From NCBI RefSeq assembly GCF_003018255.1, contig NZ_CP027440.1: a stretch of DNA of 64,000 bases. One strand, written 5' to 3'. The translations under genes were made by a program, and so were the position numbers. Source of the DNA: Escherichia coli. GTDB taxonomy: Bacteria; Pseudomonadota; Gammaproteobacteria; Enterobacterales; Enterobacteriaceae. Below, one piece after another: positions 1 through 60,206 of this stretch; position 1 is the stretch's first letter; each line of letters starts with the position of its first letter. The notes beneath the pieces are model-generated. The model ran no database searches. It saw only the letters and a program-made list of their open reading frames with translations, and was not told the DNA's origin.

Positions 1-2
1 TG

Positions 3-68
3 ATCCTGTGGGGACTGGATGGTATTCTGGTTCGCCTGGTATCCTTTATCACTGGCCTGAGGTTCTGA
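3..68 (+). CDS. secE: Protein translocase subunit SecE, 3' end only (gene begins upstream of window)
   Basis: Frame starting at nt 3 translates to [21 protein letters not shown] then stop at 66-68, directly upstream of nusG as in the secE-nusG operon. Confidence 0.7.
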
Positions 69-69
69 G

Positions 70-615
70 ATGTCTGAAGCTCCTAAAAAGCGCTGGTACG
101 TCGTTCAGGCGTTTTCCGGTTTTGAAGGCCGCGTAGCAACGTCGCTGCGTGAGCATATCAAATTACACAACATGGAAGAGTTGTTTGGTGAAGTCATGGT
201 ACCAACCGAAGAAGTGGTTGAAATCCGTGGCGGTCAGCGTCGCAAAAGCGAACGTAAATTCTTCCCTGGCTACGTCCTCGTTCAGATGGTGATGAACGAC
301 GCGAGCTGGCACCTGGTGCGCAGCGTACCGCGTGTGATGGGCTTCATCGGCGGTACTTCCGATCGTCCTGCGCCAATCAGCGATAAAGAAGTCGATGCGA
401 TTATGAACCGCCTGCAGCAGGTTGGTGATAAGCCGCGTCCGAAAACGTTGTTTGAACCGGGTGAAATGGTCCGTGTTAATGATGGTCCGTTCGCTGACTT
501 CAACGGCGTTGTTGAAGAAGTTGATTACGAGAAATCTCGTCTGAAAGTGTCTGTTTCTATCTTCGGTCGTGCGACCCCTGTAGAGCTGGACTTCAGCCAG
601 GTTGAAAAAGCTTAA
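70..615 (+). CDS. nusG: Transcription termination/antitermination factor NusG
   Basis: 181-aa ORF recognised as NusG (KOW motif region, length match); position between secE and rplK. Confidence 0.97.
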
Positions 616-646
616 CCCAGCGATCAAAAAAGCGGCGATTTAATCG

Positions 647-675
647 TTGCACAAGGCGCGAGATTGGAATACAAT
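647..675 (+). promoter_or_regulatory. Sigma-70 promoter for rplKA (PL11): -35 ttgcac, 17-bp spacer, -10 tacaat
   Basis: Hexamers read directly from sequence at 647-652 and 670-675; matches expected position of L11 promoter. Confidence 0.5.
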
Positions 676-693
676 TTCGCGCCTTTTGTTTTT
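653..693 (+). terminator. Intrinsic terminator/attenuator downstream of nusG (hairpin ggcgcgaga...ttcgcgcc followed by T-run)
   Basis: Inverted repeat 653-685 followed by ttttgttttt. Confidence 0.5.
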
Positions 694-710
694 ATGGGCC
701 TTGCCCGTAA

Positions 711-1910
<1,200 letters not shown>

Positions 1911-1932
1911 TGCCTTTACGTGGGCGGTGATT

Positions 1933-1961
1933 TTGTCTACAATCTTACCCCCACGTATAAT
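1933..1961 (+). promoter_or_regulatory. Sigma-70 promoter for rplJL-rpoBC (PL10): -35 ttgtct, 17-bp spacer, -10 tataat
   Basis: Hexamers at 1933-1938 and 1956-1961. Confidence 0.45.
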
Positions 1962-2322
1962 GCTTAATGCAGACGTATATCCGAGATATTCGGGTTGTGG
2001 CAAGGCGGTAACTGAGTGAGTCGCCAGGAGCATAGTTAACTATGTGACTGGTGCGAACGAAGGAAGCCAACGCCGCCACAAGCTGAATAGCGACGGATAG
2101 AAAAGATTTGTTCGTTGGAGCCTGGCCTATCCAGGCCTCCGTCGAAGACCGCAGGAGTTTCGCAAGAAACTTAATCCCCTGCGTAGACGGTGACAGAACG
2201 CTAAGATTATTCTTTTATATTCTGGCTTGTTTCTGCTCACCGTAATTAAGACGCTCTCTCCGTTTGGAGGAGTGAAGTGAGTTCCAGAGATTTTCTCTGG
2301 CAAACATCCAGGAGCAAAGCTA
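1962..2322 (+). promoter_or_regulatory. rplJ mRNA leader (L10-L12 autoregulatory leader region)
   Basis: Long untranslated leader (~360 nt) between promoter and rplJ start; known site of L10(L12)4 translational feedback in E. coli. Confidence 0.5.
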
Positions 2323-2820
2323 ATGGCTTTAAATCTTCAAGACAAACAAGCGATTGTTGCTGAAGTCAGCGAAGTAGCCAAAGGCGCGCTGTCTGCAGTA
2401 GTTGCGGATTCCCGTGGCGTAACTGTAGATAAAATGACTGAACTGCGTAAAGCAGGTCGCGAAGCTGGCGTATACATGCGTGTTGTTCGTAACACCCTGC
2501 TGCGCCGTGCTGTTGAAGGTACTCCGTTCGAGTGCCTGAAAGACGCGTTTGTTGGTCCGACCCTGATTGCATACTCTATGGAACACCCGGGCGCTGCTGC
2601 TCGTCTGTTCAAAGAGTTCGCGAAAGCGAATGCAAAATTTGAGGTCAAAGCCGCTGCCTTTGAAGGTGAGCTGATCCCGGCGTCTCAGATCGACCGCCTG
2701 GCAACTCTGCCGACCTACGAAGAAGCAATTGCACGCCTGATGGCAACCATGAAAGAAGCTTCGGCTGGCAAACTGGTTCGTACTCTGGCTGCTGTACGCG
2801 ATGCGAAAGAAGCTGCTTAA
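2323..2820 (+). CDS. rplJ: 50S ribosomal protein L10
   Basis: 165-aa ORF recognised as L10. Confidence 0.97.
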
Positions 2821-2886
2821 TCGCAGTTATCTTTTTAACGCATTCGCTTACGTATAAACTTATTCTGATATTCAGGAACAATTTAA

Positions 2887-3252
<366 letters not shown>

Positions 3253-3292
3253 GCCAACCCTTCCGGTTGCAGCCTGAGAAATCAGGCTGATG

Positions 3293-3323
3293 GCTGGTGA
3301 CTTTTTAGTCACCAGCCTTTTTG
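3293..3323 (+). terminator. rplL-rpoB intercistronic attenuator (partial intrinsic terminator)
   Basis: Hairpin ggctggtgac-ttttt-agtcaccagcc followed by tttttgcg; second upstream hairpin cagcctgagaaatcaggctg at 3270-3289. Confidence 0.6.
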
Positions 3324-3571
3324 CGCTGTAAGGCGCCAGTAGCGTTTCACACTGTTTGACTACTGCTGTGCCTTTCAATGCTTGTTTCTATCGACGACTT
3401 AATATACTGCGACAGGACGTCCGTTCTGTGTAAATCGCAATGAAATGGTTTAAGCGTGATAGCAACAGGCATTGCGGAAAGTGTTCCATTTTCCGGTCAA
3501 CAAAATAGTGTTGCACAAACTGTCCGCTCAATGGACAGATGGGTCGACTTGTCAGCGAGCTGAGGAACCCT

Positions 3572-6500
3572 ATGGTTTACTCCTATACCGAGAAAAAACG
3601 TATTCGTAAGGATTTTGGTAAACGTCCACAAGTTCTGGATGTACCTTATCTCCTTTCTATCCAGCTTGACTCGTTTCAGAAATTTATCGAGCAAGATCCT
3701 GAAGGGCAGTATGGTCTGGAAGCTGCTTTCCGTTCCGTATTCCCGATTCAGAGCTACAGCGGTAATTCCGAGCTGCAATACGTCAGCTACCGCCTTGGCG
3801 AACCGGTGTTTGACGTCCAGGAATGTCAAATCCGTGGCGTGACCTATTCCGCACCGCTGCGCGTTAAACTGCGTCTGGTGATCTATGAGCGCGAAGCGCC
3901 GGAAGGCACCGTAAAAGACATTAAAGAACAAGAAGTCTACATGGGCGAAATTCCGCTCATGACAGACAACGGTACCTTTGTTATCAACGGTACTGAGCGT
4001 GTTATCGTTTCCCAGCTGCACCGTAGTCCGGGCGTCTTCTTTGACTCCGACAAAGGTAAAACCCACTCTTCGGGTAAAGTGCTGTATAACGCGCGCATCA
4101 TCCCTTACCGTGGTTCCTGGCTTGACTTCGAATTCGATCCGAAGGACAACCTGTTCGTACGTATCGACCGTCGCCGTAAACTGCCTGCGACCATCATTCT
4201 GCGCGCCCTGAACTACACCACAGAGCAGATCCTCGACCTGTTCTTTGAAAAAGTTATCTTTGAAATCCGTGATAACAAGCTGCAGATGGAACTGGTGCCG
4301 GAACGCCTGCGTGGTGAAACCGCATCTTTTGACATCGAAGCTAACGGTAAAGTGTACGTAGAAAAAGGCCGCCGTATCACTGCGCGCCACATTCGCCAGC
4401 TGGAAAAAGACGACGTCAAACTGATCGAAGTCCCGGTTGAGTACATCGCAGGTAAAGTGGTTGCTAAAGACTATATTGATGAGTCTACCGGCGAGCTGAT
4501 CTGTGCTGCGAACATGGAGCTGAGCCTGGATCTGCTGGCTAAGCTGAGCCAGTCTGGTCACAAGCGTATCGAAACGCTGTTCACCAACGATCTGGATCAC
4601 GGCCCATATATCTCTGAAACCTTACGTGTCGACCCAACTAACGACCGTCTGAGCGCACTGGTAGAAATCTACCGCATGATGCGCCCTGGCGAGCCGCCGA
4701 CTCGTGAAGCAGCTGAAAGCCTGTTCGAGAACCTGTTCTTCTCCGAAGACCGTTATGACTTGTCTGCGGTTGGTCGTATGAAGTTCAACCGTTCTCTGCT
4801 GCGCGAAGAAATCGAAGGTTCCGGTATTCTGAGCAAAGACGACATCATTGATGTTATGAAAAAGCTCATCGATATCCGTAACGGTAAAGGCGAAGTCGAT
4901 GATATCGACCACCTCGGCAACCGTCGTATCCGTTCCGTTGGCGAAATGGCGGAAAACCAGTTCCGCGTTGGCCTGGTACGTGTAGAGCGTGCGGTGAAAG
5001 AGCGTCTGTCTCTGGGCGATCTGGATACCCTGATGCCTCAGGATATGATCAACGCCAAGCCGATTTCCGCAGCAGTGAAAGAGTTCTTCGGTTCCAGCCA
5101 GCTGTCTCAGTTTATGGACCAGAACAACCCGCTGTCTGAGATTACGCACAAACGTCGTATCTCCGCACTCGGCCCAGGCGGTCTGACCCGTGAACGTGCA
5201 GGCTTCGAAGTTCGAGACGTACACCCGACTCACTACGGTCGCGTATGTCCAATAGAAACCCCTGAAGGTCCGAACATCGGTCTGATCAACTCTCTGTCCG
5301 TGTACGCACAGACTAACGAATACGGCTTCCTTGAGACTCCGTATCGTAAAGTGACCGACGGTGTTGTAACTGACGAAATTCACTACCTATCTGCTATCGA
5401 AGAAGGCAACTACGTTATCGCCCAGGCGAACTCCAACCTGGATGAAGAAGGCCACTTCGTAGAAGACCTGGTAACCTGCCGTAGCAAAGGCGAATCCAGC
5501 TTGTTCAGCCGCGACCAGGTTGACTACATGGACGTATCCACCCAGCAGGTGGTATCCGTCGGTGCGTCCCTGATCCCGTTCCTGGAACACGATGACGCCA
5601 ACCGTGCATTGATGGGTGCGAACATGCAACGTCAGGCCGTTCCGACTCTGCGCGCTGACAAGCCGCTGGTTGGTACTGGTATGGAACGTGCTGTTGCCGT
5701 TGACTCCGGTGTAACTGCGGTAGCTAAACGTGGTGGTGTCGTTCAGTACGTGGATGCTTCCCGTATCGTTATCAAAGTTAACGAAGACGAGATGTATCCG
5801 GGTGAAGCAGGTATCGATATCTACAACCTGACCAAATACACCCGTTCTAACCAGAACACCTGTATCAACCAGATGCCGTGTGTGTCTCTGGGTGAACCGG
5901 TTGAACGTGGCGACGTGCTGGCAGACGGTCCGTCCACCGACCTCGGTGAACTGGCGCTTGGTCAGAACATGCGCGTAGCGTTCATGCCGTGGAATGGTTA
6001 CAACTTCGAAGACTCCATCCTCGTATCCGAGCGTGTTGTTCAGGAAGACCGTTTCACCACCATCCACATTCAGGAACTGGCGTGTGTGTCCCGTGACACC
6101 AAGCTGGGGCCAGAAGAGATCACCGCTGACATCCCGAACGTGGGTGAAGCTGCGCTCTCCAAACTGGATGAATCCGGTATCGTTTACATTGGTGCGGAAG
6201 TGACCGGTGGCGACATTCTGGTTGGTAAGGTTACGCCGAAAGGTGAAACTCAGCTGACCCCAGAAGAAAAACTGCTGCGTGCGATCTTCGGTGAGAAAGC
6301 GTCTGACGTTAAAGACTCTTCTCTGCGCGTACCAAACGGTGTATCCGGTACGGTTATCGACGTTCAGGTCTTTACTCGCGATGGCGTAGAAAAAGACAAA
6401 CGTGCGCTGGAAATCGAAGAAATGCAGCTCAAACAGGCGAAGAAAGACCTGTCTGAAGAACTGCAGATCCTCGAAGCGGGTCTGTTCAGCCGTATCCGTG

Positions 6501-7600
6501 CTGTGCTGGTAGCCGGTGGCGTTGAAGCTGAGAAGCTCGACAAACTGCCGCGCGATCGCTGGCTGGAGCTGGGCCTGACCGACGAAGAGAAACAAAATCA
6601 GCTGGAACAGCTGGCTGAGCAGTATGACGAACTGAAACACGAGTTCGAGAAGAAACTCGAAGCGAAACGCCGCAAAATCACCCAGGGCGACGATCTGGCA
6701 CCGGGCGTGCTGAAGATTGTTAAGGTATATCTGGCGGTTAAACGCCGTATCCAGCCTGGTGACAAGATGGCAGGTCGTCATGGTAACAAGGGTGTAATTT
6801 CTAAGATCAACCCGATCGAAGATATGCCTTACGATGAAAACGGTACGCCGGTAGACATCGTACTGAACCCGCTGGGCGTACCGTCTCGTATGAACATCGG
6901 TCAGATCCTCGAAACCCACCTGGGTATGGCTGCGAAAGGTATCGGCGACAAGATCAACGCCATGCTGAAACAGCAGCAAGAAGTCGCGAAACTGCGCGAA
7001 TTCATCCAGCGTGCGTACGATCTGGGCGCTGACGTTCGTCAGAAAGTTGACCTGAGTACCTTCAGCGATGAAGAAGTTATGCGTCTGGCTGAAAACCTGC
7101 GCAAAGGTATGCCAATCGCAACGCCGGTGTTCGACGGTGCGAAAGAAGCAGAAATTAAAGAGCTGCTGAAACTTGGCGACCTGCCGACTTCTGGTCAGAT
7201 CCGCCTGTACGACGGCCGCACTGGTGAACAGTTCGAGCGTCCGGTAACCGTTGGTTACATGTACATGCTGAAACTGAACCACCTGGTCGACGACAAGATG
7301 CACGCGCGTTCCACCGGTTCTTACAGCCTGGTTACTCAGCAGCCGCTGGGTGGTAAGGCACAGTTCGGTGGTCAGCGTTTCGGGGAGATGGAAGTGTGGG
7401 CGCTGGAAGCATACGGCGCAGCATACACCCTGCAGGAAATGCTCACCGTTAAGTCTGATGACGTGAACGGTCGTACTAAGATGTATAAAAACATCGTGGA
7501 CGGCAACCATCAGATGGAGCCGGGCATGCCAGAATCCTTCAACGTATTGTTGAAAGAGATTCGTTCGCTGGGTATCAACATCGAACTGGAAGACGAGTAA
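3572..7600 (+). CDS. rpoB: DNA-directed RNA polymerase subunit beta
   Basis: ORF recognised as RpoB; true start [16 protein letters not shown] is the 12th codon of the 1353-aa ORF in the track, giving 1342 aa. Confidence 0.97.
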
Positions 7601-39411: not shown

Positions 39412-41331
<1,920 letters not shown>

Positions 41332-42371: not shown

Positions 42372-46055
<3,684 letters not shown>

Positions 46056-46274
46056 TTCACAAATCTGTCACTTTTCCTTACAACAAACAGGGCGCTCAAT
46101 GAGTGCCCTGTCTCTTTATTAATATGAAACACTTATACTGGAAACAGGCTGGAATAATCTTAGCCGGAAAAACGAAGGTCAAAAGGCACAGTAAAGATGC
46201 CAGTCAGCGTGTTTCCGGTCCTTTGGTCATTCAATTGCTTCAGGAACATATAACGATAAGGAGAACCTGAACTC

Positions 46275-47906
46275 GTGTTAACGCTGCTTCACCTGCTTTC
46301 TGCCGTCGCCCTGCTGGTCTGGGGGACTCATATTGTTCGAACCGGCGTAATGCGCGTCTTCGGCGCGCGTTTGCGTACTGTCCTTAGCCGGAGCGTCGAA
46401 AAAAAGCCGCTCGCCTTTTGCGCGGGGATAGGCGTTACCGCACTGGTGCAGAGCAGTAATGCCACCACTATGCTGGTGACCTCGTTCGTCGCTCAGGATC
46501 TGGTAGCCCTCGCACCGGCTCTGGTGATTGTGCTGGGTGCAGATGTCGGGACGGCGCTAATGGCGCGTATTCTCACCTTCGACTTATCCTGGCTGTCACC
46601 ATTACTTATTTTTATCGGCGTGATTTTTTTCCTCGGACGCAAACAGTCACGCGCCGGGCAACTGGGCCGCGTCGGTATTGGTCTTGGGTTGATTTTGCTG
46701 GCGCTGGAGTTGATTGTGCAGGCCGTAACGCCGATCACCCAGGCAAACGGCGTTCAGGTGATCTTTGCCTCGCTGACCGGCGATATTCTGCTGGATGCGC
46801 TGATTGGTGCGATGTTCGCCATTATCAGCTACTCCAGCCTTGCCGCGGTACTGCTGACCGCGACTCTGACCGCCGCAGGCATTATCTCTTTCCCAGTGGC
46901 GCTTTGTCTGGTGATTGGTGCAAACCTCGGTTCCGGCCTGCTGGCGATGCTCAACAACAGTGCCGCCAATGCCGCAGCCCGCCGTGTCGCGCTGGGTAGC
47001 CTGCTGTTTAAGCTGGTGGGTAGCCTGATTATCCTGCCGTTTGTTCATTTGCTGGCAGAGACAATGGGGAAGTTGCCATTGCCAAAAGCGGAATTGGTGA
47101 TCTATTTCCACGTCTTCTACAACCTTGTACGCTGCCTGGTCATGCTGCCATTTGTTGACCCGATGGCACGGTTTTGCAAAACGATTATTCGCGATGAACC
47201 GGAACTGGATACCCAGCTACGGCCTAAACATCTGGATGTCAGCGCGCTGGATACGCCCACGCTTGCTCTGGCGAACGCTGCCCGCGAAACCCTGCGCATT
47301 GGCGACGCCATGGAACAGATGATGGAAGGGTTGAATAAAGTGATGCACGGCGAGCCACGGCAGGAGAAAGAGCTGCGTAAGCTGGCTGATGACATCAACG
47401 TTCTCTATACCGCCATTAAGCTGTATCTGGCGCGGATGCCAAAAGAGGAACTGGCAGAAGAAGAGTCGCGCCGCTGGGCGGAGATCATCGAAATGTCGCT
47501 CAACCTTGAACAGGCCTCCGATATCGTCGAGCGCATGGGGAGTGAAATTGCCGATAAATCGCTGGCAGCACGGCGGGCATTTTCGCTTGATGGCTTGAAG
47601 GAACTGGATGCGCTCTATGAGCAATTGCTCAGTAATTTAAAACTGGCAATGTCGGTTTTCTTCTCTGGCGATGTTACCAGCGCCCGTCGTTTGCGCCGCA
47701 GCAAGCATCGCTTTCGCATTCTTAATCGCCGTTATTCCCATGCTCACGTCGATCGCCTGCATCAGCAAAACGTGCAGAGTATTGAAACCAGTTCGCTACA
47801 TTTAGGCTTACTGGGAGATATGCAGCGTCTGAACTCGCTGTTTTGTTCGGTGGCTTACAGTGTGCTGGAACAGCCGGATGAAGACGAAGGACGGGACGAG
47901 TATTAA
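46275..47906 (+). CDS. yjbB: Putative Na+/phosphate symporter family inner-membrane protein YjbB
   Basis: 543-aa polytopic membrane ORF with C-terminal PhoU-like region; synteny after metH. Confidence 0.9.
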   Translation: MLTLLHLLSAVALLVWGTHIVRTGVMRVFGARLRTVLSRSVEKKPLAFCAGIGVTALVQSSNATTMLVTSFVAQDLVALAPALVIVLGADVGTALMARILTFDLSWLSPLLIFIGVIFFLGRKQSRAGQLGRVGIGLGLILLALELIVQAVTPITQANGVQVIFASLTGDILLDALIGAMFAIISYSSLAAVLLTATLTAAGIISFPVALCLVIGANLGSGLLAMLNNSAANAAARRVALGSLLFKLVGSLIILPFVHLLAETMGKLPLPKAELVIYFHVFYNLVRCLVMLPFVDPMARFCKTIIRDEPELDTQLRPKHLDVSALDTPTLALANAARETLRIGDAMEQMMEGLNKVMHGEPRQEKELRKLADDINVLYTAIKLYLARMPKEELAEEESRRWAEIIEMSLNLEQASDIVERMGSEIADKSLAARRAFSLDGLKELDALYEQLLSNLKLAMSVFFSGDVTSARRLRRSKHRFRILNRRYSHAHVDRLHQQNVQSIETSSLHLGLLGDMQRLNSLFCSVAYSVLEQPDEDEGRDEY

Positions 47907-47919
47907 TACCGTGACCCTG

Positions 47920-47992
47920 AAGGCCTGATAAGACGTGTAAAGCGTCGCATCAGGCACTATGTACAAGATGCCGGATCATGCATCCGGCAATT
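47920..47992. repeat. REP element(s) between yjbB and pepE
   Basis: ggcctgataagacg...cgtcgcatcaggc and gccggatcatgcatccggca palindromic units. Confidence 0.5.
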
Positions 47993-47995
47993 CAC

Positions 47996-48685
47996 TTAAA
48001 AACGGTGACCCGCTTCCAGCGGAACCGCTTCTTCACCAGCCTTAAACACATAAGTGGTGTTCGGGCCACCCAGCGTTGCGTGACCTTTATTCACTGTGAT
48101 CCAGTTACCTTCCGGTAGACCAATAATTGTGAGTTCTGGCGCGACGACCAGCAGTTCGCGAATACGCTGTTCACGGGTTTCACCTTTATGGCCTTCCGGC
48201 AGCGCGTTGGTGAAGTGCGGGTTGATTTGCAACGGGAACAGATTCAGCGCATCGAAACCTTGTGGATCGACAATCGGCATATCGTTGGTGGTACGAATGG
48301 TTGGGCAAGCAAGGTTAGCGCCTGCGCTCCAGCCAATATACAGCGCGCCACGTTTCACCACGTCAGTAATGGGTGCCAGCAGCCCGCGCTCGCGGCACTG
48401 TTTCAGCAACTGGAAAGTATTCCCGCCGCCGACAATCACGATCTCAGCATTTTCAATCGCGGCAACGGGATCGACAACGCTATGAATACCGGTGACAGAA
48501 ACACCCAGCGGAGCGAGAACCGCAGCCGTTTTCGCTGTGTAATCATCCCAGGTCTGCGTTACGCCAGCGAAAGGGATAAACACCGCTGAGCGGCGACCCT
48601 GCAACTGTTCAGCAATTAGCGGCAGTGCATGTTCCAGCCAGGCTTTACCCGGCAGCGTCGAGTTACTCAATAAAAGCAGTTCCAT
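47996..48685 (-). CDS. pepE: Dipeptidase E (alpha-aspartyl dipeptidase)
   Basis: 229-aa ORF recognised as PepE. Confidence 0.95.
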
Positions 48686-48799
48686 TACTTCTCCGGTTAG
48701 TAAGAAATCACGGAAGGCATGCTACCACTGCGAATTTAACCACTTACTGACATGGCTCACGATGTCACGTATTGCACAGGCGCTGAGACTGATGACAAA

Positions 48800-48905
48800 C
48801 ACAGCATTGCCTGATGCGCTACGCTTACCTGGCCTACCAGATAACTGCAATATATTGAATTTTCGAGATTATGTAGGCCGAATAAGGCTTCATTCCGCAT
48901 CCGGC
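48800..48905. repeat. REP-like palindromic units between pepE and the sor operon
   Basis: gcctgatgcgctacgc...gtaggccgaataaggc...cgcatccggcat. Confidence 0.5.
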
Positions 48906-49065
48906 ATAAACAATGTGTACTTTGCCACCAATTTGAGCGCCCCTTAAGGCGCTGATATTTTTTATCCTTCTCATGCAAATTGTGCTGCTTCAGCAATCAG
49001 CCGCACATCCGGTCGCGAAGTTGCCGCGGCGACCAGCCAGCGACATGCAGAGTTAAGTAGCGCGA

Positions 49066-50295
49066 TTAATCATGGGAAATTGCCTCTGCATGAGTGAGCA
49101 GATATTGCTCCGCCTCACCGGACCAGATCCCCTGATGACGCGCCAGAATTGCCGCCAGTGCTTGATCCTGAATCTGCGTGAGTGACATAAGCGGCAGGTA
49201 TTTCCCGGTATACACCAGCTTTTTGCCGCCGCCGACGGCAGGCAATTCAAGCGTGGTTTCGCCCGCGGCATTCAGCCCAAGAATATGTGTTACCACTTTT
49301 GCGGCCTGCACTTTTTTCTCTTCGATCAGTTTGACCGCCGCGCGCATGTCGTCGGTATTGCCGCCTGACGTGCCCACGTAGTGGGTAAATGCATAATGCA
49401 CATCGTAGAAATTAATTGGCGCGCTGAAATGTTTATCCTGCGGTCCGGCGAAGAAATTCAGGCAACCATCTGTCGCCAGCAAGGAAGAGGCGAGAGTCAC
49501 CAGTCCTTCATTAGGCACAAAGACGAAAATATCATCGAAGCCGTGACCGCCACTCAGCGCCATTAACGTATCAAATGCTGCATCAGTGGCATTGAGATAA
49601 TGAATCAGTGTTTGCGATTCTGATGGATAGTGCTTGCGCGCATAACTCAATTTATCGTTGTCGGTATCGGTAATGACGAGCAGCGACGGGTTAACGGGTC
49701 CATGCAGCGCATAATCAATCGCCAACAGTCCCATTGGTCCGGTGCCGCCGAGGATCAGCGTGCGCCCTTGCGGGCGAATCCCCATCGTGTGGTTATAACT
49801 ACCTTCCTGAAGATGATAGTTGGCGTTGAACGCGCCAATCACGCAGGAAAGCGGTTCAACCAGCGAGCCTTCAAAATAGGTTTCGCCGTCGTATGCCAGC
49901 AGGCAATCTTGTTCCATAACCTCATTTGGGATAACCACATGTGTGGCTTCACCGCCCACCCACGGGAAGGAGTAGCCGGGGCAGTCCGGGCGGTCGGGGA
50001 GTTGCAGGTTGGCCTGAATCACATAACGCTGACCCGGCTGGAATTTGTGCTGCCACTTTTTACCCACGGCCAGAATATCGCCGCAAAACTCGTGGCCGAT
50101 GATGATGGGGTTGGTCGCCACATCGTCGGGTACTTTTTTATGGTTTTCACCCAGATTGGCCTCTTTCCAGGAAGAGAGGCACAGGCTGTCGGTGACCACC
50201 GTCGCGAGGATTTCATCCTCCTGCATTTCAGGAAGATCAAAGGTTTCCAGGCGTAAATCACGTTTACCATAAAGACGCAGAGCTGTTGTTTTCAT
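49066..50295 (-). CDS. sorE: L-sorbose-1-phosphate reductase (zinc-dependent medium-chain dehydrogenase)
   Basis: 409-aa product from MKTTALRLYG; MDR/ADH-like fold (GHEFCGDI...); last gene of sorCDFBAME order. Confidence 0.85.
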   Translation of the reverse strand: MKTTALRLYGKRDLRLETFDLPEMQEDEILATVVTDSLCLSSWKEANLGENHKKVPDDVATNPIIIGHEFCGDILAVGKKWQHKFQPGQRYVIQANLQLPDRPDCPGYSFPWVGGEATHVVIPNEVMEQDCLLAYDGETYFEGSLVEPLSCVIGAFNANYHLQEGSYNHTMGIRPQGRTLILGGTGPMGLLAIDYALHGPVNPSLLVITDTDNDKLSYARKHYPSESQTLIHYLNATDAAFDTLMALSGGHGFDDIFVFVPNEGLVTLASSLLATDGCLNFFAGPQDKHFSAPINFYDVHYAFTHYVGTSGGNTDDMRAAVKLIEEKKVQAAKVVTHILGLNAAGETTLELPAVGGGKKLVYTGKYLPLMSLTQIQDQALAAILARHQGIWSGEAEQYLLTHAEAISHD

Positions 50296-50346
50296 AAACC
50301 ACCTCATGTTGAGCGATGGCCCCGGCAGTCGTGCCGGGGCGAAGAA

Positions 50347-51171
50347 TCAGGACAGGAAGCCCAGCACATTGCCGATAATCCCTAAGCCAAACAGGGCGAA
50401 AATCAGCCATACCGGGTTAATTTTTTTGTTGAGCAGACGAACCATCAGTAGCGTCAGACCGAGCGCCAGCAAACCAGGGCAAAGTTGGTCGAGAATGTTC
50501 TGCACGGTCATGGTGACGGTGGAGCCATCGGCGGCATGCGTTTGTGAAACCACCAACGGTACGTTGATTGACGTCCATTTGGTGACCAGCACGCCCATCA
50601 CAAACAGTCCGAGAATCGACGCGCCTTCGGTGAGTTTTTGCAGCACATTCCCGCCCATATCGCTGACGATATTCACCCCTTTGCGAAAGCCGAGCTGTAG
50701 GCCATACCACTTCATCGCCAGACGCACCGCGTTGAAAATAAAGAAGAACAGCAGGGGGCCGAGAATGTTGCCCGAAAGTGCCAGAGATGCGCCGAGCGCG
50801 GCGGTAATCGGGCGCAGCGTTCCCCAGACCAGTGGATCGCCAACCCCTGCCAACGGTCCCATCAGGCCGACTTTGATGCCGTTAATGGTACCGTCATCAA
50901 TTTCCGCGCCGTTGGCCCGCGCCTCTTCCATGGCGGCAGTGACGCCGATGACCGGGCCACATACGGCTGGCGTGGTATTGAAGAACACCAGGTGTCGCCT
51001 GAGCGCCGCAACCTGATCCTCTTTTAATGGGTAAAGTCGCTTGATGGCGGGGATCATGTCGTAGCAAAAACCCAGCCCATGAATACGTTCAAAGTTAAAG
51101 GACGCCTGTTGCAGGTTGGAGCGCAGAAACATGTTCACCAGATCGCTGCGTGTAATTTTTCTCTGTTCCAT
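50347..51171 (-). CDS. sorM: PTS sorbose-specific EIID component (mannose family)
   Basis: N-terminus MEQRKITRSDLVNMFLRSNLQQASFNFERIHGLGFCYDMIPAIKRLY parallels ManZ-type IID. Confidence 0.85.
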   Translation of the reverse strand: MEQRKITRSDLVNMFLRSNLQQASFNFERIHGLGFCYDMIPAIKRLYPLKEDQVAALRRHLVFFNTTPAVCGPVIGVTAAMEEARANGAEIDDGTINGIKVGLMGPLAGVGDPLVWGTLRPITAALGASLALSGNILGPLLFFFIFNAVRLAMKWYGLQLGFRKGVNIVSDMGGNVLQKLTEGASILGLFVMGVLVTKWTSINVPLVVSQTHAADGSTVTMTVQNILDQLCPGLLALGLTLLMVRLLNKKINPVWLIFALFGLGIIGNVLGFLS

Positions 51172-51181
51172 GATGGCTCCG

Positions 51182-51979
51182 TTAATTGTCAAGTTGGTCA
51201 AGGGCGGTGGAGGCGGTGGCCTGGAGTTGAGGTTCAGCTTTACGCCACTGTGGATTTAGCTGGATGTAGACCAGGGCCATGATCACGCCGACGCCACCGA
51301 ACGCCAGCAGACTGAGATCGAGGTAGCCACCTGCGAGGAAACCGAGGAAAAAGAAAGGCATCAAATATTTCACGCCCATCATGCGAAGCACCATGGCGTA
51401 ACCGACCACCACGATAAAACCGCCAGCAATCTGCAGTCCACGGGTCACAAATTCGGGAATGGCGCTCAGCATATTGCTCACCATATCAGCGCTGACGAAC
51501 AGCGAGACAATCAGTGCCGGAATAGCAACGCGCAGTGCCTGCACGCCAAGCGCGGAGACATGCAGAATATCGAGAGTGCGAAACCGTGCTTCTTCCGCTG
51601 CTTTATCCGCCGCGTGCTGGAACACTACGGTGATGGTACGGGCAAACACCGTCAGCACCTGGCCTGCCGCAGCCACAGGCAACGCGATGGCGATTCCGGT
51701 GGCGATGCTTTGCTGACCAACGATAACCAGAATGGCGGAGATTATGCTGGCGAGTGCAGAATCCGGAGATTGCGCCGCGCCGACGTTCATCCAGCCGAGA
51801 GCTATCAATTCCAGCGTACCACCGAGCATAATTCCGGTTTTTAAATCACCGAGAATTAAACCAATCACCGTACAGGCAATTAACGGACGATGAGTCTGAA
51901 ATTCATCCAGCACGCTGCCCATTCCGGCAATACAGGAAAAAAGAAATATAGCAATGATTTGTAGGGTACTTATTTCCAT
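51182..51979 (-). CDS. sorA: PTS sorbose-specific EIIC component (mannose family)
   Basis: 265-aa polytopic membrane ORF of ManY/IIC type. Confidence 0.85.
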   Translation of the reverse strand: MEISTLQIIAIFLFSCIAGMGSVLDEFQTHRPLIACTVIGLILGDLKTGIMLGGTLELIALGWMNVGAAQSPDSALASIISAILVIVGQQSIATGIAIALPVAAAGQVLTVFARTITVVFQHAADKAAEEARFRTLDILHVSALGVQALRVAIPALIVSLFVSADMVSNMLSAIPEFVTRGLQIAGGFIVVVGYAMVLRMMGVKYLMPFFFLGFLAGGYLDLSLLAFGGVGVIMALVYIQLNPQWRKAEPQLQATASTALDQLDN

Positions 51980-52044
51980 GATTTGTCACCTTTTAAGTGT
52001 CGTCATCCCTGCCTGTTAAAGCATATGTACACAGGCGCTATTAT

Positions 52045-52539
52045 TTAATTTGCGATTAACTGTTCGTTTATTTTGTCGATAATATTGATTGAGGGATCTG
52101 ACGCTACGACGCGTAAATCCAGTATGACGCCAAGATTATTTAACTCATGAAATGCGTTAATATCATCATCATCTAATGAAACCGCTTTGGTTAACTGTTT
52201 TTTACCGGGCCGCCAGGCCATGCCGCCAATATTCAGGGTGTCTATTTTTACCCCCTGGCGAACCATCGCTAAGGCATCCTGTGGGCGAGTGAAAAGATAA
52301 AAAACGGTTTCGTCCTGATATTGCGGGTTGTGATAAACCGCGACGGCTTTTTCAATATTGACCACGTTAACCTTCATTCCCGGTGGCGCAGCCTGACGCA
52401 ATAATGTCCGGCGCACTTCATCGTTATAAACTTCGTCATTGCAGATAATAATGTGCTGGGCATTAGCCACTTTCGACCAGACGGTAGTGACCTGGCCGTG
52501 GATCAGACGGTCATCAATGCGGGCGAGCGTAATGTTCAT
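52045..52539 (-). CDS. sorB: PTS sorbose-specific EIIB component
   Basis: 164-aa ORF with N-terminal MNITLARIDDRLIHGQV (phosphorylatable His of mannose-family IIB). Confidence 0.85.
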   Translation of the reverse strand: MNITLARIDDRLIHGQVTTVWSKVANAQHIIICNDEVYNDEVRRTLLRQAAPPGMKVNVVNIEKAVAVYHNPQYQDETVFYLFTRPQDALAMVRQGVKIDTLNIGGMAWRPGKKQLTKAVSLDDDDINAFHELNNLGVILDLRVVASDPSINIIDKINEQLIAN

Positions 52540-52946
52540 CAGAAATCCTCCTCTGCCGTTGCCAGTTGTTTCCAGACAACGCAGGTTTGCTTTGCGATTT
52601 GCGTCAGGTGTTCACACAGTTCATCAACATTCATGCTGTGCTGGTTATCAACCAGTTCGAGCGCCAGCGGCAGAGAAAGGCCGCTGATTACCCGCAGACG
52701 AGGATTGCGCATCGCAAGCATCGCTGCCGCATTCCACGGGCTGCCGCACTGTAAATCCACGGCAATCAGCCACTCATCTTGATTGTGAATGCTTACTAAC
52801 TTTTCCAGCTTTGCTACGATGTCTCCGGCGTTTTCACCGGGCACAAATTCAACGGCTTCAACATTGGCGTTGCCGTAAACCATCTGAACCGATTCCAGCA
52901 TGGCGCAAGCTAATTTGCCGTGGGCACAAAAAATGGCGTTGACCAT
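52539..52946 (-). CDS. sorF: PTS sorbose-specific EIIA component
   Basis: 135-aa ORF, mannose-family IIA N-terminus (MVNAIFCAHGKLA). Confidence 0.85.
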   Translation of the reverse strand: MVNAIFCAHGKLACAMLESVQMVYGNANVEAVEFVPGENAGDIVAKLEKLVSIHNQDEWLIAVDLQCGSPWNAAAMLAMRNPRLRVISGLSLPLALELVDNQHSMNVDELCEHLTQIAKQTCVVWKQLATAEEDF

Positions 52947-52955
52947 AAAGCCTCC

Positions 52956-53762
52956 TTAGCCGCGCGTTTTGCCGCCCGCAATGTTAGTGGTTACTCCGGT
53001 GATATAGCTGGCGCGTTGAGACAGCAGATAACAAACAAAATCAGCGACTTCTGCTAATCTTCCGGCGCGCCCAATAGGAATGGCGTTTTTGGTATAGCCT
53101 TCACGCAGCTGCTCGACGGTGATATTGCGCGTCCACGCCAGCGCCTCTTCATATTCCGGCGTGCGTAGCCCGGTTTTTTCCAGAATCCCGGGCGCGATAC
53201 CGACCACACGGATGCCGTGTTTACCCAGCTCTTTCGACCAGGAGCGCGTGAAGCTATTGAGCGCGGCTTTGGTAGCGGCGTAACAGCTTTGGCCTTCTGA
53301 GCCTTCCAGTCCACTTTCTGAGGAAACATTCACAATCACGCCATCATGTTGTTTGACCATCTGTCGCGCCACCGCCTGCGACATCAGAAAAACGCCTTTC
53401 TGGTTGATATTGACCATTTTTTCGAATGCAGCTTCGTTGAGTTCATACTGCCCGGCAGGCGCTTTCTCATCGACCAGCAGACGCGGGAAATTGACCCCGG
53501 CGTTATTGACCAGACCGTCGATGCGACCAAAACGCTGGATAATTTCCGCTACCGTATGATTTACCTCTTTGGCGCTGGAAATATCGGTCGGCCAAAACTG
53601 ATAGCCTTTATGACCTTCATATTGTCCATCGCCACCGTGAATATCGACCATCTGTACATTCGCGCCTTGTGCTAATAATTCCTCTACAATCGCCAGACCA
53701 ATACCGCATGCGCCGCCGGTGACGATAATGATTTTATCCTGCAAATTTAACCACGTTTGCAT
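52956..53762 (-). CDS. sorD: Short-chain dehydrogenase/reductase (D-glucitol-6-phosphate dehydrogenase of sor operon)
   Basis: 268-aa SDR with TGGACGIG Rossmann motif and YxxxK catalytic motif. Confidence 0.85.
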   Translation of the reverse strand: MQTWLNLQDKIIIVTGGACGIGLAIVEELLAQGANVQMVDIHGGDGQYEGHKGYQFWPTDISSAKEVNHTVAEIIQRFGRIDGLVNNAGVNFPRLLVDEKAPAGQYELNEAAFEKMVNINQKGVFLMSQAVARQMVKQHDGVIVNVSSESGLEGSEGQSCYAATKAALNSFTRSWSKELGKHGIRVVGIAPGILEKTGLRTPEYEEALAWTRNITVEQLREGYTKNAIPIGRAGRLAEVADFVCYLLSQRASYITGVTTNIAGGKTRG

Positions 53763-53831
53763 AACAGACTCCTGATTTTAGATAATAGGGACCCGCCGTA
53801 ATTTTTATTACGATAAACATCGGGAAGATTT

Positions 53832-54779
53832 TTATTTCAGTAATAGTTCAGCTGTGCTGCTATTCGTTACCAGACAATTAATATATTTTCCACGCAGTGT
53901 ACCAATAATTCCGCTGTATTTTTCTTCACTCATGGCAATGCCAATGGAATACCGCGCCTGCTTTAATTTATTCATTTCGATAGAGAGTGTTTTTTCGCTC
54001 ATATTCGTTTCAACCATTGCGCCGTGAATATCAAAAAAGCGCGAGCAAATATCGCCAGCAACCTGGCGGGCATTCAGGTCGTCACTCTCTTCACCACCAT
54101 AAAACGCATGCCAGTTAGCGCCGTCGCGAATGGCCGGTGAGCCAATTCCCACCAGGGCGACATCCAGATTATCCCAGTAGGCAGAGATGGTTTTAAAGTG
54201 CTGAGACTGCATGATCCCATTACGAATTAATGGGTTATCCAGCAGAGCCGGAAAATCCGCGAGATGCGATTCCCCTTTCAGCTTCGCTGCCGCGCTGTAG
54301 GTTAATGTGTTTACGTGATAGCGGCTTTCGAGTTTACCGGACGGTCCGCCAATAATTGGTACGCAGATTAACTGCCGCGATTGCCCCGCCTGCGGCAAGT
54401 TTTCAACCAGTGCGCTCACCGCGCGACCCCAGGAAAAACCGACAATATCGCCAGGCTCCAGCAAGCGATCCAGCAGTTGCGCGCCGTGTAACCCCATCAT
54501 CGCCAGTTGAGTCTCTTCATCCTCATCATTTCCCGACACCACCACAACGTCTTTCAGGCCAAACTTTTGCTTCAGTTGCTGCTCCAGCCAGAGATTTTCG
54601 TTGTAGTCATAGTTGATGGCGATGGTGACAATTCCCTGATCGCGGCCTCGTTTAAGCAAGCGGCTGATGGTGGTGCGGTAAATACCCAGTTCGCGCGCGA
54701 TTTGCGCCTGCGTCATATCCTGTTCGTAATAGAGTTGGGCAATCTTCACAATCAAACGGATATCGTCACTGTTTTCCAT
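53832..54779 (-). CDS. sorC: SorC-family transcriptional regulator of the sorbose operon
   Basis: 315-aa product from MENSDDIRLIVKIAQLYYEQDMTQAQIARELGIYRTTISRLLKRGR (N-terminal HTH plus sugar-binding domain). Confidence 0.85.
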   Translation of the reverse strand: MENSDDIRLIVKIAQLYYEQDMTQAQIARELGIYRTTISRLLKRGRDQGIVTIAINYDYNENLWLEQQLKQKFGLKDVVVVSGNDEDEETQLAMMGLHGAQLLDRLLEPGDIVGFSWGRAVSALVENLPQAGQSRQLICVPIIGGPSGKLESRYHVNTLTYSAAAKLKGESHLADFPALLDNPLIRNGIMQSQHFKTISAYWDNLDVALVGIGSPAIRDGANWHAFYGGEESDDLNARQVAGDICSRFFDIHGAMVETNMSEKTLSIEMNKLKQARYSIGIAMSEEKYSGIIGTLRGKYINCLVTNSSTAELLLK

Positions 54780-55126
54780 TGCCGCCTCCTGGTTCTGCAC
54801 ATTTGTGCAAATACGCTTTCTCACCGCTTGATCTGATATAACCCCATCATGAGGGCCTTTCAAAGCGATTTTTCACTCTTTGCATGGGGAGAAATAGCGC
54901 TTTCTCTTGCACATTTGTTTCTCTGCGTAGTAGTCATCAGCACAGGTGTGCAGCGATTCGTAATATGTTGATTATCCTTATTTTGCCAGGCAAATTTGCA
55001 TCGTACTTCCGGAGACACTTTTGTGATAAAAGGCGTGGCAGATCACATTTAATTTCGACGTTGCCGCATAACCCTGTTTTTCCCCGCTAAGAGGTACGGT
55101 ATATTCCGCGTTTTACAGGAGAATTT

Positions 55127-55999
55127 ATGCTGCCCGACTCATCAGTCCGTTTAAATAAATACATCAGCGAAAGCGGAATTTGCTCACGCCGCGAAGCGGA
55201 TCGCTATATCGAGCAAGGCAATGTGTTCCTTAATGGCAAGCGAGCCACCATTGGCGATCAGGTGAAACCCGGCGACGTTGTGAAAGTAAATGGTCAGTTG
55301 ATTGAACCTCGGGAAGCCGAAGATTTGGTACTTATCGCCCTGAACAAGCCCGTCGGTATTGTCAGCACCACCGAAGATGGCGAGCGCGATAACATTGTCG
55401 ATTTCGTTAACCACAGCAAACGCGTATTCCCGATTGGCCGCCTGGATAAAGACTCCCAGGGGCTGATTTTCCTCACCAATCACGGCGATCTGGTGAATAA
55501 GATCCTCCGTGCGGGTAACGATCATGAGAAAGAGTATCTGGTGACGGTCGATAAACCGATTACCGATGAATTTATTCGTGGTATGGGGGCGGGGGTGCCA
55601 ATCCTCGGGACAGTGACTAAAAAGTGCAAAGTCAAAAAAGAAGCGCCATTTGTCTTCCGCATTACCCTGGTGCAGGGGCTGAACCGTCAGATCCGTCGCA
55701 TGTGCGAGCACTTTGGTTACGAAGTGAAAAAGCTGGAACGTACGCGCATTATGAACGTCAGTTTAAGCGGCATTCCGCTGGGGGAGTGGCGCGATTTAAC
55801 CGACGATGAGTTAATCGACCTCTTTAAGCTCATCGAAAATTCCTCTTCCGAGGCAAAACCTAAAGCGAAGGCCAAACCGAAAACGGTAGGCATCAAACGT
55901 CCAGTCGTTAAGATGGAAAAAACGGCGGAAAAAGGCGGTCGCCCGGCGTCCAACGGTAAGCGTTTTACCTCGCCGGGGCGCAAAAAGAAGGGGCGTTAA
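55127..55999 (+). CDS. rluF: 23S rRNA pseudouridine synthase F
   Basis: 290-aa ORF with S4 domain and RsuA-type catalytic region; Lys-rich C-terminus. Confidence 0.93.
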
Positions 56000-56272
56000 T
56001 CAGCGCCTGCCGCGCGTCGACGTATTTGCTGACCAGCTAAATGACGCCTCAGGATCCGGTTTATAAGCCTGCTTTTTCTTCAATTGGCGGGCTTTTTTCG
56101 CTTCAGCCTCACGCTCGACCATTAATTTATCGATGTACTCTTTCTTAATGCTGTTGGTTTCGGAGTTGGTCAGTACGCGACCATGCGCAATCCGCGCCCG
56201 ATCCAGCAGTGTTTTAAGTTCACGCTGCTCGCGTTCAGTCATCTCTTTTTGGGTAATACGGGGGAGTGCCAT
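56000..56272 (-). CDS. yjbD: DUF3811 family protein YjbD
   Basis: 90-aa ORF immediately convergent on rluF; synteny. Confidence 0.85.
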   Translation of the reverse strand: MALPRITQKEMTEREQRELKTLLDRARIAHGRVLTNSETNSIKKEYIDKLMVEREAEAKKARQLKKKQAYKPDPEASFSWSANTSTRGRR

Positions 56273-56479
56273 GATGGTGCCCTCAGTGAGCCAGAGAGTT
56301 CAGTGTACGGGAATTCGTTTGCGAGCAGAACTGATAATATTCATTTTGCCTTCTCTTAACTATTTATCTCTTTCGATAATTAATTAGAGATGTAGATAAA
56401 AAAATTAAAGGCAATTATTCTCCGATAAAGACGTTGGTTAACAGAGTACAGGCTCGTTTATTTATGGGCATAATGACAA

Positions 56480-56517
56480 GAAAAACAATACGGCCCGAAA
56501 TAATGTCTTCCGGGCCA
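56480..56517 (-). terminator. lysC intrinsic terminator
   Basis: Minus-strand hairpin ggcccggaa...uucgggcc followed by guauuguuuuuc. Confidence 0.6.
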
Positions 56518-56525
56518 TACTGTGT

Positions 56526-57875
56526 TTACTCAAACAAATTAAAATGCAGCTTCTGCACCACCTGCTCGGCATCTTCGCCGGGCACCAGGAAGCACAGGTT
56601 ATGGCTGGATGCGCCGTAACAAATCATGCGAATGTTGAACGGTTCCAGTACGCCGAATACCTCTTTGCCAACGCCGCAGGCTTTTGACAGGTCATTGCCA
56701 ATCAACGCGACCAGCGCCAGACCTTCCTCCACTTCTACCCGGCATAGTGCAGACAGCTCCATCAGCAGAGATTGCGTCAGCAAGGTATCGCCAGTGGAGG
56801 TTGAACCGGTGGTATCAAGGGTTAATGCCACGCTCACTTCTGACGTGGTGATTAAGTCTACCGAAATATTATGCCGCGCGAGGATGCCGAAAACTTCCGC
56901 GAGGAAACCGCGAGAATGCAGCATATTCAGGCTGTGCAAAGTGAGCAGAGTCTGATTGCGACGAAGCGCCAGCGCGCGGAACAGCGGCGGATTTTCAGTT
57001 TTATTGCACACCAGCGTACCACCTGCGCGTGGGTCTTTGCTGGAGCCGACAAAGACCGGGATATCGCTGCGTACTGCGGGTAGCAACGTTGCCGGATGCA
57101 GTACTTTTGCACCAAAAGTTGCCATCTCTGCCGCTTCGGCAAACGCGATTTCATCAATGCGTTTTGCTGCGGAAACCACGCGTGGATCGGTGGTGTAGAT
57201 GCCCGGGACGTCGGTCCAGATATCAACACGAGATGCGTGTAAAGCCTCCGCCAGCAAGGCTGCCGTATAATCGCTGCCTCCACGGCCAAGCGTCGTTGTA
57301 CGACCTTTATTTTCGCTGCCGATAAATCCCTGGGTGATCACTAAGCCTTCATTGAGGCGTGGGAGCAGTTGCAGCGCGGCCAGTTCCGCCAGCGCGGCTA
57401 CATCTGGCTCTGCACGACCAAATCGGTCGTTGGTACGCATCACTTTACGTACATCAAACCATTGTGCCTGAACATCGCGTTCGCGCAGGATCTCGACAAA
57501 CAGCAGGGTCGACATCAGCTCGCCGTGGCTGACCAGTTCATCTGTCAGGGCCGGAGACGTTGCCAGCGCCGCCGCTTCTGCCAGAACAGTAATGTTCTCC
57601 AGCAGACGTTCAATCTCTTCACGGATAACGTTCGGGTAACGCAGACGTTCCAGAATGGCAAACTGGATGTTGCGAATAGCGTCGAGTTTTTCGAATCGCT
57701 CGCCAGGTTCCAGTCCTTCAGCTAAAGCGACCAGCAGATTAGTGATACCAGCAGAAGCCGAGAGGACAACTAAACGCACGTTGGCATCAGAAAGCACAAT
57801 ATCAGCGCTGCGGTTCATGGCGTCAAAATCAGCTACGCTGGTACCGCCAAATTTGGAGACAACAATTTCAGACAT
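56526..57875 (-). CDS. lysC: Lysine-sensitive aspartokinase III
   Basis: 449-aa ORF recognised as LysC (MSEIVVSKFGGTSVADFDAM). Confidence 0.97.
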   Translation of the reverse strand: MSEIVVSKFGGTSVADFDAMNRSADIVLSDANVRLVVLSASAGITNLLVALAEGLEPGERFEKLDAIRNIQFAILERLRYPNVIREEIERLLENITVLAEAAALATSPALTDELVSHGELMSTLLFVEILRERDVQAQWFDVRKVMRTNDRFGRAEPDVAALAELAALQLLPRLNEGLVITQGFIGSENKGRTTTLGRGGSDYTAALLAEALHASRVDIWTDVPGIYTTDPRVVSAAKRIDEIAFAEAAEMATFGAKVLHPATLLPAVRSDIPVFVGSSKDPRAGGTLVCNKTENPPLFRALALRRNQTLLTLHSLNMLHSRGFLAEVFGILARHNISVDLITTSEVSVALTLDTTGSTSTGDTLLTQSLLMELSALCRVEVEEGLALVALIGNDLSKACGVGKEVFGVLEPFNIRMICYGASSHNLCFLVPGEDAEQVVQKLHFNLFE

Positions 57876-60062: not shown

Positions 60063-60140
60063 GTAGGCCGGATAAGGCGTTCACGCCGCATCCGGCAACC
60101 GATGCCTGATGCGACGCGGTCGCGTCTTATCAGGCCTACA
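60063..60140. repeat. REP/BIME element downstream of pgi
   Basis: gtaggccggataaggcgttcacgccgcatccggcaa...gcctgatgcgacgc...gcgtcttatcaggcctaca. Confidence 0.6.
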
Positions 60141-60206
60141 GGTCGATGCCGATATGTACATCGTATTCGGCAATTAATACATAGTACGATTGATTAAATA
60201 GCCTTA

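Follow-up and report, generated by a model that had tools for sequence, protein, structure and literature searches.

The window, i.e. the complete stretch of 64,000 nucleotides that was analysed, is a segment of an E. coli chromosome with the gene order metH, yjbB, pepE, sor operon, rluF and yjbD. We take the sor genes of E. coli to map near metH-iclR. In its gene order and its neighbourhood metH-yjbB-pepE-sor-rluF, the locus resembles the known sor (L-sorbose PTS) operon sorCDFBAME of K. pneumoniae and E. coli, but the ancestral cluster has an eighth, shikimate-dehydrogenase-like gene overlapping the sorE stop, a remnant of which is present in the window. For the L-sorbose sor operon of Klebsiella pneumoniae and E. 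coli, PMC13410766 cites Sprenger and Lengeler 1984. The following features were placed on the window (strand given where one applies):

46275-47906, plus strand: yjbB
47919-47956: Z2-type (long) REP GAAGGCCTGATAAGACGTGTAAAGCGTCGCATCAGGCA in the spacer between the convergent 3' ends of yjbB and pepE, conserved in K-12
47969-47989: short perfect palindrome TGCCGGATCATGCATCCGGCA, composed as TGCCGGAT-catgc-ATCCGGCA and built from REP outer arms
47996-48685, minus strand: pepE
48686-48775, minus strand: pepE 5' region common to K-12 and all Escherichia (K-12 BLAST, alignment A1)
48776-48807: left flank of the BIME cassette; homology to K-12 ends at 48775/48776
48808-48837: Z1 REP in iREP orientation, CTAC foot at 48834-48837, 2 stem substitutions
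48838-48872: BIME-1 L linker of 35 nt, with a putative IHF-like site, CAATATATTGAAT, at 48848-48860
48873-48906: decayed Y REP (1-nt deletion, ~4 substitutions) with a GTAG foot at 48873-48876
48935-48955: conserved GC hairpin GAGCGCC-CCTTA-AGGCGCT, with a T-run on the plus strand
48962-49070, minus strand: what remains of the eighth gene of the sor cluster (shikimate 5-dehydrogenase-like, NF009202) after an internal deletion of 701 bp at 49015/49016
49066-54863, minus strand: operon sorE-sorM-sorA-sorB-sorF-sorD-sorC
~55070-55092: right break with K-12; high identity from 55092 (35 bp before the rluF ATG), diverged homology from ~55070
55127-55999, plus strand: rluF, with its ATG at 55127

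A preliminary description of this DNA had reported REP-type palindromes downstream of yjbB and between pepE and sorE. Both are there (47919-47989 and 48808-48906), far beyond what chance would produce. The REP at 47919-47956 is palindromic, extragenic and similar to its family; its conserved foot, GTAG in K-12, is mutated to GAAG in the window. When the yjbB-pepE cluster was folded as RNA, z-scores of -5.25 (plus strand) and -4.19 (minus strand) were obtained, and 0 of 200 shuffled sequences were equally stable. The Rfam family naRNA4, which we take to be REP-derived, matches 47922-47989 over its full model length with 42 bits, under the gathering score. The cluster thus resembles single or paired Z2 REPs in convergent gene spacers, e.g. 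those of the REP325/naRNA4 type, in its full-length naRNA4 match, its two stable hairpins and the convergent 3' ends around it, but differs from them in its score below the Rfam gathering threshold, its GAAG foot and its second hairpin, which is a truncated REP. The annotation of NC_000913 holds no repeat features at yjbB-pepE. On both sides of the REP the window is colinear with K-12 (44800-48775, 97.1% identity), and because the REP lies inside this unbroken homology, it is unrelated to any junction. Two more REPs of the Z2 type occur elsewhere in the window (39456-39491 and 60104-60139), where the REP pattern is expected 0.00 times by chance; the stretches 39453-39578 and 60103-60142 hold these further copies (GCCTGATGCGACGC...GCGTCTTATCAGGCCTAC).

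The second cluster has the architecture of a BIME-1: two inverse REPs, z1 and y, with CTAC and GTAG feet, are joined by a long L linker with an IHF-like site, and the element is present in one copy in the window and at a median of 1 place in E. coli. The Z1 iREP deviates at 2 of 29 positions from GCCTGATGCGCTACGCTTATCAGGCCTAC, the Z1 REP consensus, and 0.00 such matches are expected by chance. Compared with the pristine orthologue in Escherichia sp. MOD1, in which the Y REP reads GTAGGCCGGATAAGGCGTTTACGCCGCATCCGGCA, the window copy has 2 substitutions in the Z1 stem and ~4 substitutions plus the 1-nt deletion in Y. Its fold is only marginally more stable than that of shuffled sequences (z = -2.05), versus z = -3.78 for the MOD1 orthologue. 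A scan of 45000-57000 against Rfam gave no match for the BIME, and only the sub-threshold naRNA4 match for the first cluster. The 113-nt BIME unit is a dispersed repeat with no fewer than 19 places in each E. coli genome (median at least 40), and every E. coli genome, including those without sor, has some place covering at least 80% of it. A linker with TGCAATATATTGAATTT also recurs in independent copies of the same architecture at two Pseudocitrobacter loci (L037 ~17570, L039 ~18845). In the classification of Bachellier and Gilson, BIME-1 elements consist of z1 and y REPs joined to a conserved long L linker in which an IHF site is frequent (PMC3333891). The window copy shares with these elements (RIP/RIB) the inverse REPs, the ~35-nt L linker, the extragenic site at an operon 3' end and the recurrence throughout E. 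coli genomes. It differs from them in that both stems are decayed and that additional copies of a local hairpin arm flank its cassette; moreover, whereas BIME-1 elements are described as single-copy, the orthologous locus of E. albertii has ~4 tandem units of 147 bp (3.9 by our count).

The same BIME-1 is found in pristine form between pepE and an intact eighth gene in E. whittamii and in 'E. coli' SCPM-O-B-8794. Judging from these sequences, the BIME has orthologues throughout the genus Escherichia; since other Escherichia species have it, it is older than E. coli and independent of any recent event. Members of the REP/BIME family function as terminators, mRNA stabilisers and IHF and gyrase sites (PMC3333891). 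By analogy, REP hairpins on the sor transcript would stabilise its 3' end and attenuate read-through ahead of pepE, and on the DNA level the BIME is a predicted binding site for IHF and gyrase. In this strain, the BIME is probably close to neutral because both REP stems are damaged. The REPtron/RAYT system (TnpA-REP) is a known route by which BIMEs could be cut and moved, and the GTAG feet are kept in the window BIME; no tnpA-REP gene was found near the locus, and no sign of RAYT action was seen. Both clusters are standard members of the REP/BIME family in ordinary positions. They are of kinds already known, so that the consequence for REP biology is small, and what is new is a modest amount of local detail on their history.

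To compare the locus with K-12, a K-12-type locus (L001) was aligned with the window by BLAST, which yielded three colinear blocks: K-12 1-3977 corresponds to window 44800-48775, K-12 4064-4980 to window 55092-56008, and K-12 5103-6977 to window 55999-57874. The left break, at 48775/48776, is 32 bp to the left of the BIME, i.e. in the pepE-sorE spacer, where the preliminary description had expected homology to K-12 to end; the right break is at ~55070-55092. Between the breaks, 6,316 bp are specific to the window and 86 nt to K-12. Direct repeats, for which a search at the junctions had been proposed, are absent: the longest word common to the two junctions has 4 nt, compared with a mean of 5.5 for shuffled sequences. 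It had also been stated that K-12 homology running through the REP units would argue against their role as boundary markers; such homology is seen at the yjbB-pepE REP and is not seen at 48808-48906.

The sequences upstream of pepE show what the left break represents. Past 48775, K-12 continues with TTCTGGAAAGTG, which is ancestral pepE-upstream sequence and is also present in Citrobacter, Pseudocitrobacter and Escherichia sp. E1V33 (alignment A1). Upstream of pepE, Klebsiella, Citrobacter, Kluyvera and Pseudocitrobacter have ...GTTCTGGAAAG(C/A)..., in common with K-12 (TTCTGGAAAGTG) and with E1V33, which has an empty site (TTCTGGAAAGCG). The ancestral TTCTGGAAAG is kept in K-12 and E1V33 and is absent from all BIME-bearing alleles, which diverge at ATTGC/AC, that is at 48775/48776 (A1). 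As K-12 carries ancestral pepE-upstream sequence past the break, 48775/48776 is the edge of the BIME-bearing segment that replaced this sequence in the sor+ Escherichia haplotype; on the evidence of the alignment, it is neither the endpoint of the K-12 deletion nor the edge of sor. E1V33 also retains a remnant of the ccdA 3' end. With TTCTGGAAAG (K-12, E1V33) and the ccdA remnant (E1V33) both missing from the BIME alleles, the K-12 deletion must have arisen on a ccdAB-type haplotype without this BIME.

This bears on the idea that the BIME itself caused the deletion of the 6.3-kb sor block in K-12, by illegitimate recombination or by breakage through gyrase or RAYT. The break does lie near the BIME, and according to PMC3333891 BIMEs are bound by gyrase and can be cut in vitro by TnpA-REP, but the K-12 spacer has no REP remnant and, as described, the empty-site sequences keep ancestral parts that every BIME allele lacks. 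We thus consider this scenario very unlikely.

Of the 86 nt of K-12, the first 10-12 nt (ancestral pepE upstream) and the last ~20-55 nt (rluF upstream) could be assigned. In BLAST, the 86 nt matched neither the sor block nor any of the loci compared, and ~53 nt are unalignable. An origin of the spacer from the ccdA 3' end or the ccdA promoter was considered and dropped, as local alignments to ccdAB regions were not significant (z 0.3-1.4). The rluF-proximal ~55 nt of K-12 are closer to Klebsiella and Kluyvera than to sor+ E. coli (alignment A2). Because of this likeness, the empty haplotype may have come in by recombination instead of arising through a deletion within E. coli, and the alignment hints that it is old or imported.

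The pepE-proximal side of the break is strongly conserved. A TGA-N6-TCAC block at 48748-48760 is invariant in 13 of 13 aligned pepE upstream regions from four genera (A1) and is a putative pair of CRP-like half-sites, as suggested by the motif. The block starts 15 bp to the left of the break, and all variability of the locus begins 15 bp beyond it. A promoter scan of 47850-49150 detected no sigma-70-like site.

To assess how the locus varies, 5,426 complete E. coli genomes were surveyed. Three alleles account for 5,422 of them. The window-type pepE-sorE spacer, with BIME and sor, is found in 2,688 genomes, and the empty site with the K-12-type spacer in 2,557 (~47%). Nearly all matches of the K-12-type spacer have at least 99% identity, and the type therefore represents a single haplotype. 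The third allele (177 genomes) has sor followed, after sorE, by an intact 813-bp gene for a 'shikimate 5-dehydrogenase' (467 bits to NCBIfam NF009202) and has no BIME; the boundary between sor and pepE can therefore do without a BIME.

In the window, the eighth gene is a ruin. Its start codon, the ATG at 49070, overlaps the stop of sorE, and after 6 codons the reading frame runs into a premature stop. The stretch 48686-49123 is colinear with Escherichia sp. MOD1-EC7003, which has an intact eighth gene and a pristine BIME-1, except for single-base gaps and one deletion of 701 bp, which identifies 48962-49070 as a pseudogene remnant. The same deleted remnant is shared by the 2,688 E. coli genomes, whereas the gene is intact in most other genera; the common sor cluster of E. 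coli thus carries a dead eighth gene.

A few strains have rare private variants. In strain ET729, a deletion fuses a truncated pepE to a truncated sorE, and the whole spacer is gone together with the BIME (L004 3260-3261). Strain 98218 has an IS1 inside sorC (L005 14802-15499). Two further variants (NZ_AP022177 and NZ_CP103718) were also seen: in one the pepE match is split into two places, and in the other the match starts only from window position 47938, inside the yjbB-pepE REP. At the far end of the locus, the stop codons of rluF and yjbD abut in the window (55999-56008), and K-12 has a 122-bp element between these genes (L001 4981-5102) that the window lacks. This element contains CCCCTCGCCCCTTCGGG..GGGTTAGGGTGAGGGG and is a member of a family of dispersed boxC-like repeats, for which the median is 14 places per genome. 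At rluF-yjbD, 1,774 of the 5,426 genomes have the element, independently of their sor status; one sor+ locus (L003), for example, has it.

For a survey of synteny, one genome per species with PepE was used and the genes were mapped by tblastn. The arrangement yjbD-rluF-sorCDFBAME-sdhL-pepE-yjbB (sdhL being the eighth gene) was found in Escherichia (4 species-level genomes), Raoultella (4), Enterobacter (2), Citrobacter (at least 5), Pseudocitrobacter (3) and Klebsiella (3; K. michiganensis, K. oxytoca and K. grimontii). In K. spallanzanii (L020), the sor genes lie 6 kb from pepE, and rluF was not seen. In Escherichia, Citrobacter, Klebsiella, Enterobacter and Raoultella, sor and the flanking genes yjbB, pepE and rluF show parallel levels of nucleotide identity to the window. 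Pseudocitrobacter (L037, L039, L048) shows another pattern, with 86-93% identity for sor, 80-82% for pepE and yjbB, and 85-87% for rluF and yjbD. These values suggest an exchange between genera with one boundary between the eighth gene and pepE. That the sor region can pass from one genus to another, as in Pseudocitrobacter, counts against our preferred explanation. The GC content of the sor block is 0.512, compared with 0.53 for the window, and no integrase or transposase ORF was found in the block.

These data do not agree with the preliminary description in one central point, namely that REP units mark the left boundary of a sor insertion. Such a reading, in which sor is an accessory block inserted into an empty, K-12-like pepE-rluF spacer and the REP/BIME units marked or attracted the junction, can point to the roughly half of E. 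coli genomes without sor, to the homology break only 32 bp from the BIME and to REPs being known targets of IS insertion (PMC1525189). However, sor occupies the same site with identical synteny in at least six genera and has diverged as its flanks have, and neither a target duplication nor mobility genes nor a GC anomaly is seen. We conclude from the synteny, the flank-like divergence, the normal GC content and the lack of a junction repeat that sor is not an insertion. Furthermore, K-12 does not have a clean empty site but its own 86 nt, the first 10-12 of which are ancestral and present in sor+ Citrobacter too, a sor+ allele without BIME exists, and the yjbB-pepE REP is not at a junction at all. 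An insertion marked by REPs is therefore highly improbable. That the palindromes are merely chance inverted repeats or plain intrinsic terminators without relation to REPs can be practically dismissed: the Rfam match is only sub-threshold and NC_000913 has no repeat annotation at yjbB-pepE, but the patterns are expected 0.00 times by chance, the BIME unit recurs at its at least 19 places per genome (median at least 40), and independent copies of the same architecture exist elsewhere.

Most probably, then, the REP/BIME elements are in ordinary positions, at 3' ends of transcription units, next to a sor cluster that is ancestral at the rluF-pepE site, and the K-12 type is a single deletion haplotype. 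We propose the following course of events. The sor cluster would be an old occupant of the rluF-pepE site in Enterobacteriaceae, originally with eight genes, sorCDFBAME and the shikimate-dehydrogenase-like one, and the K-12 type would be the derived, deleted state of this site. In the window haplotype, the BIME cassette would have replaced the occupant of a ccdAB/higBA slot, and the eighth gene would have lost its 701 bp. The first element is a Z2 REP accompanied by a short palindrome, lies in the spacer of the convergent genes yjbB and pepE and is shared with K-12; the second is a decayed BIME-1 at the end of the sor operon (3' side), immediately upstream of the promoter region of pepE. The main consequence is a correction: sor of E. 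coli is best regarded as an ancestral locus that has been lost repeatedly, a single deletion haplotype being present in ~47% of the complete genomes, and not as an acquired islet. A 2026 study of virulence and sorbose metabolism left open how strains "acquired" sor (PMC13410766), and the ancestry of the locus bears on that question.

The slot between the eighth gene and pepE has a history of its own. In Klebsiella, Citrobacter, Kluyvera and Pseudocitrobacter, this space is occupied by a ccdA-ccdB pair (Pfam E-values 1.5e-24 and 6.9e-25) or by a Gp49/HTH_37 (higBA-like) pair; ccdAB was seen at L018, L032, L037 and L011, and Gp49/HTH_37 at L013 and L022. Both kinds of modules end at the same GC hairpin, which in other genera lies between the 3' ends of ccdB and the sdhL-like gene and which survives in the window at 48935-48953. 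In Citrobacter MGH106 (L073), the slot holds an unrelated insert of 1.9 kb. The slot appears to be a small hotspot in which toxin-antitoxin modules and BIMEs replace one another.

The terminator-hairpin arm AGGCGCTGA occurs at 48778-48786 and again at 48947-48955, and the complementary arm TGAGCGCC at 48934-48941. The BIME cassette would thus be framed by three copies of the arm, two direct (AAGGCGCTGA) and one inverted. The BIME-less allele keeps a single copy (...GGCAAACAAGGCGCTGATG...). Between Escherichia and Pseudocitrobacter, the 145-nt cassette is inverted in situ: it aligns plus/minus (84% identity, E-value 2e-41), and both its flanks align plus/plus. A layout with three arms would account for the BIME-less allele, the E. 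albertii array and this inversion; simple models with inversion of one segment did not fit until the third copy of the arm was recognised. The left flank GACTGATGACAAA (48787-48799) is shared with the end of the boxC-like dispersed repeat family, which fits the mosaic make-up of BIMEs. The flank GACTGATGACAAAC had been considered as a remnant of the ccdB 3' end, a candidate that was dropped because the same 13-nt motif ends the boxC-like family. A bolder possibility, to which we give only limited credit, is that the BIME-1 at sor/pepE is part of a small rearranging cassette that is lost, amplified and inverted in the ccdAB/higBA slot. If these states arise by active processing, through RAYT/TnpA-REP or recombination between hairpin arms, and are not rare accidents, the locus would be a natural multi-state record of a BIME that moves, flips and amplifies together with non-REP flanks.

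In Kluyvera (L010, L011, L013, L026, L027, L034), the site has rluF, a sorC-like regulator (67-68% amino acid identity), an sdhL-like gene and pepE, and there is no PTS, sorD or sorE. The pair of regulator and dehydrogenase may be a unit in its own right.
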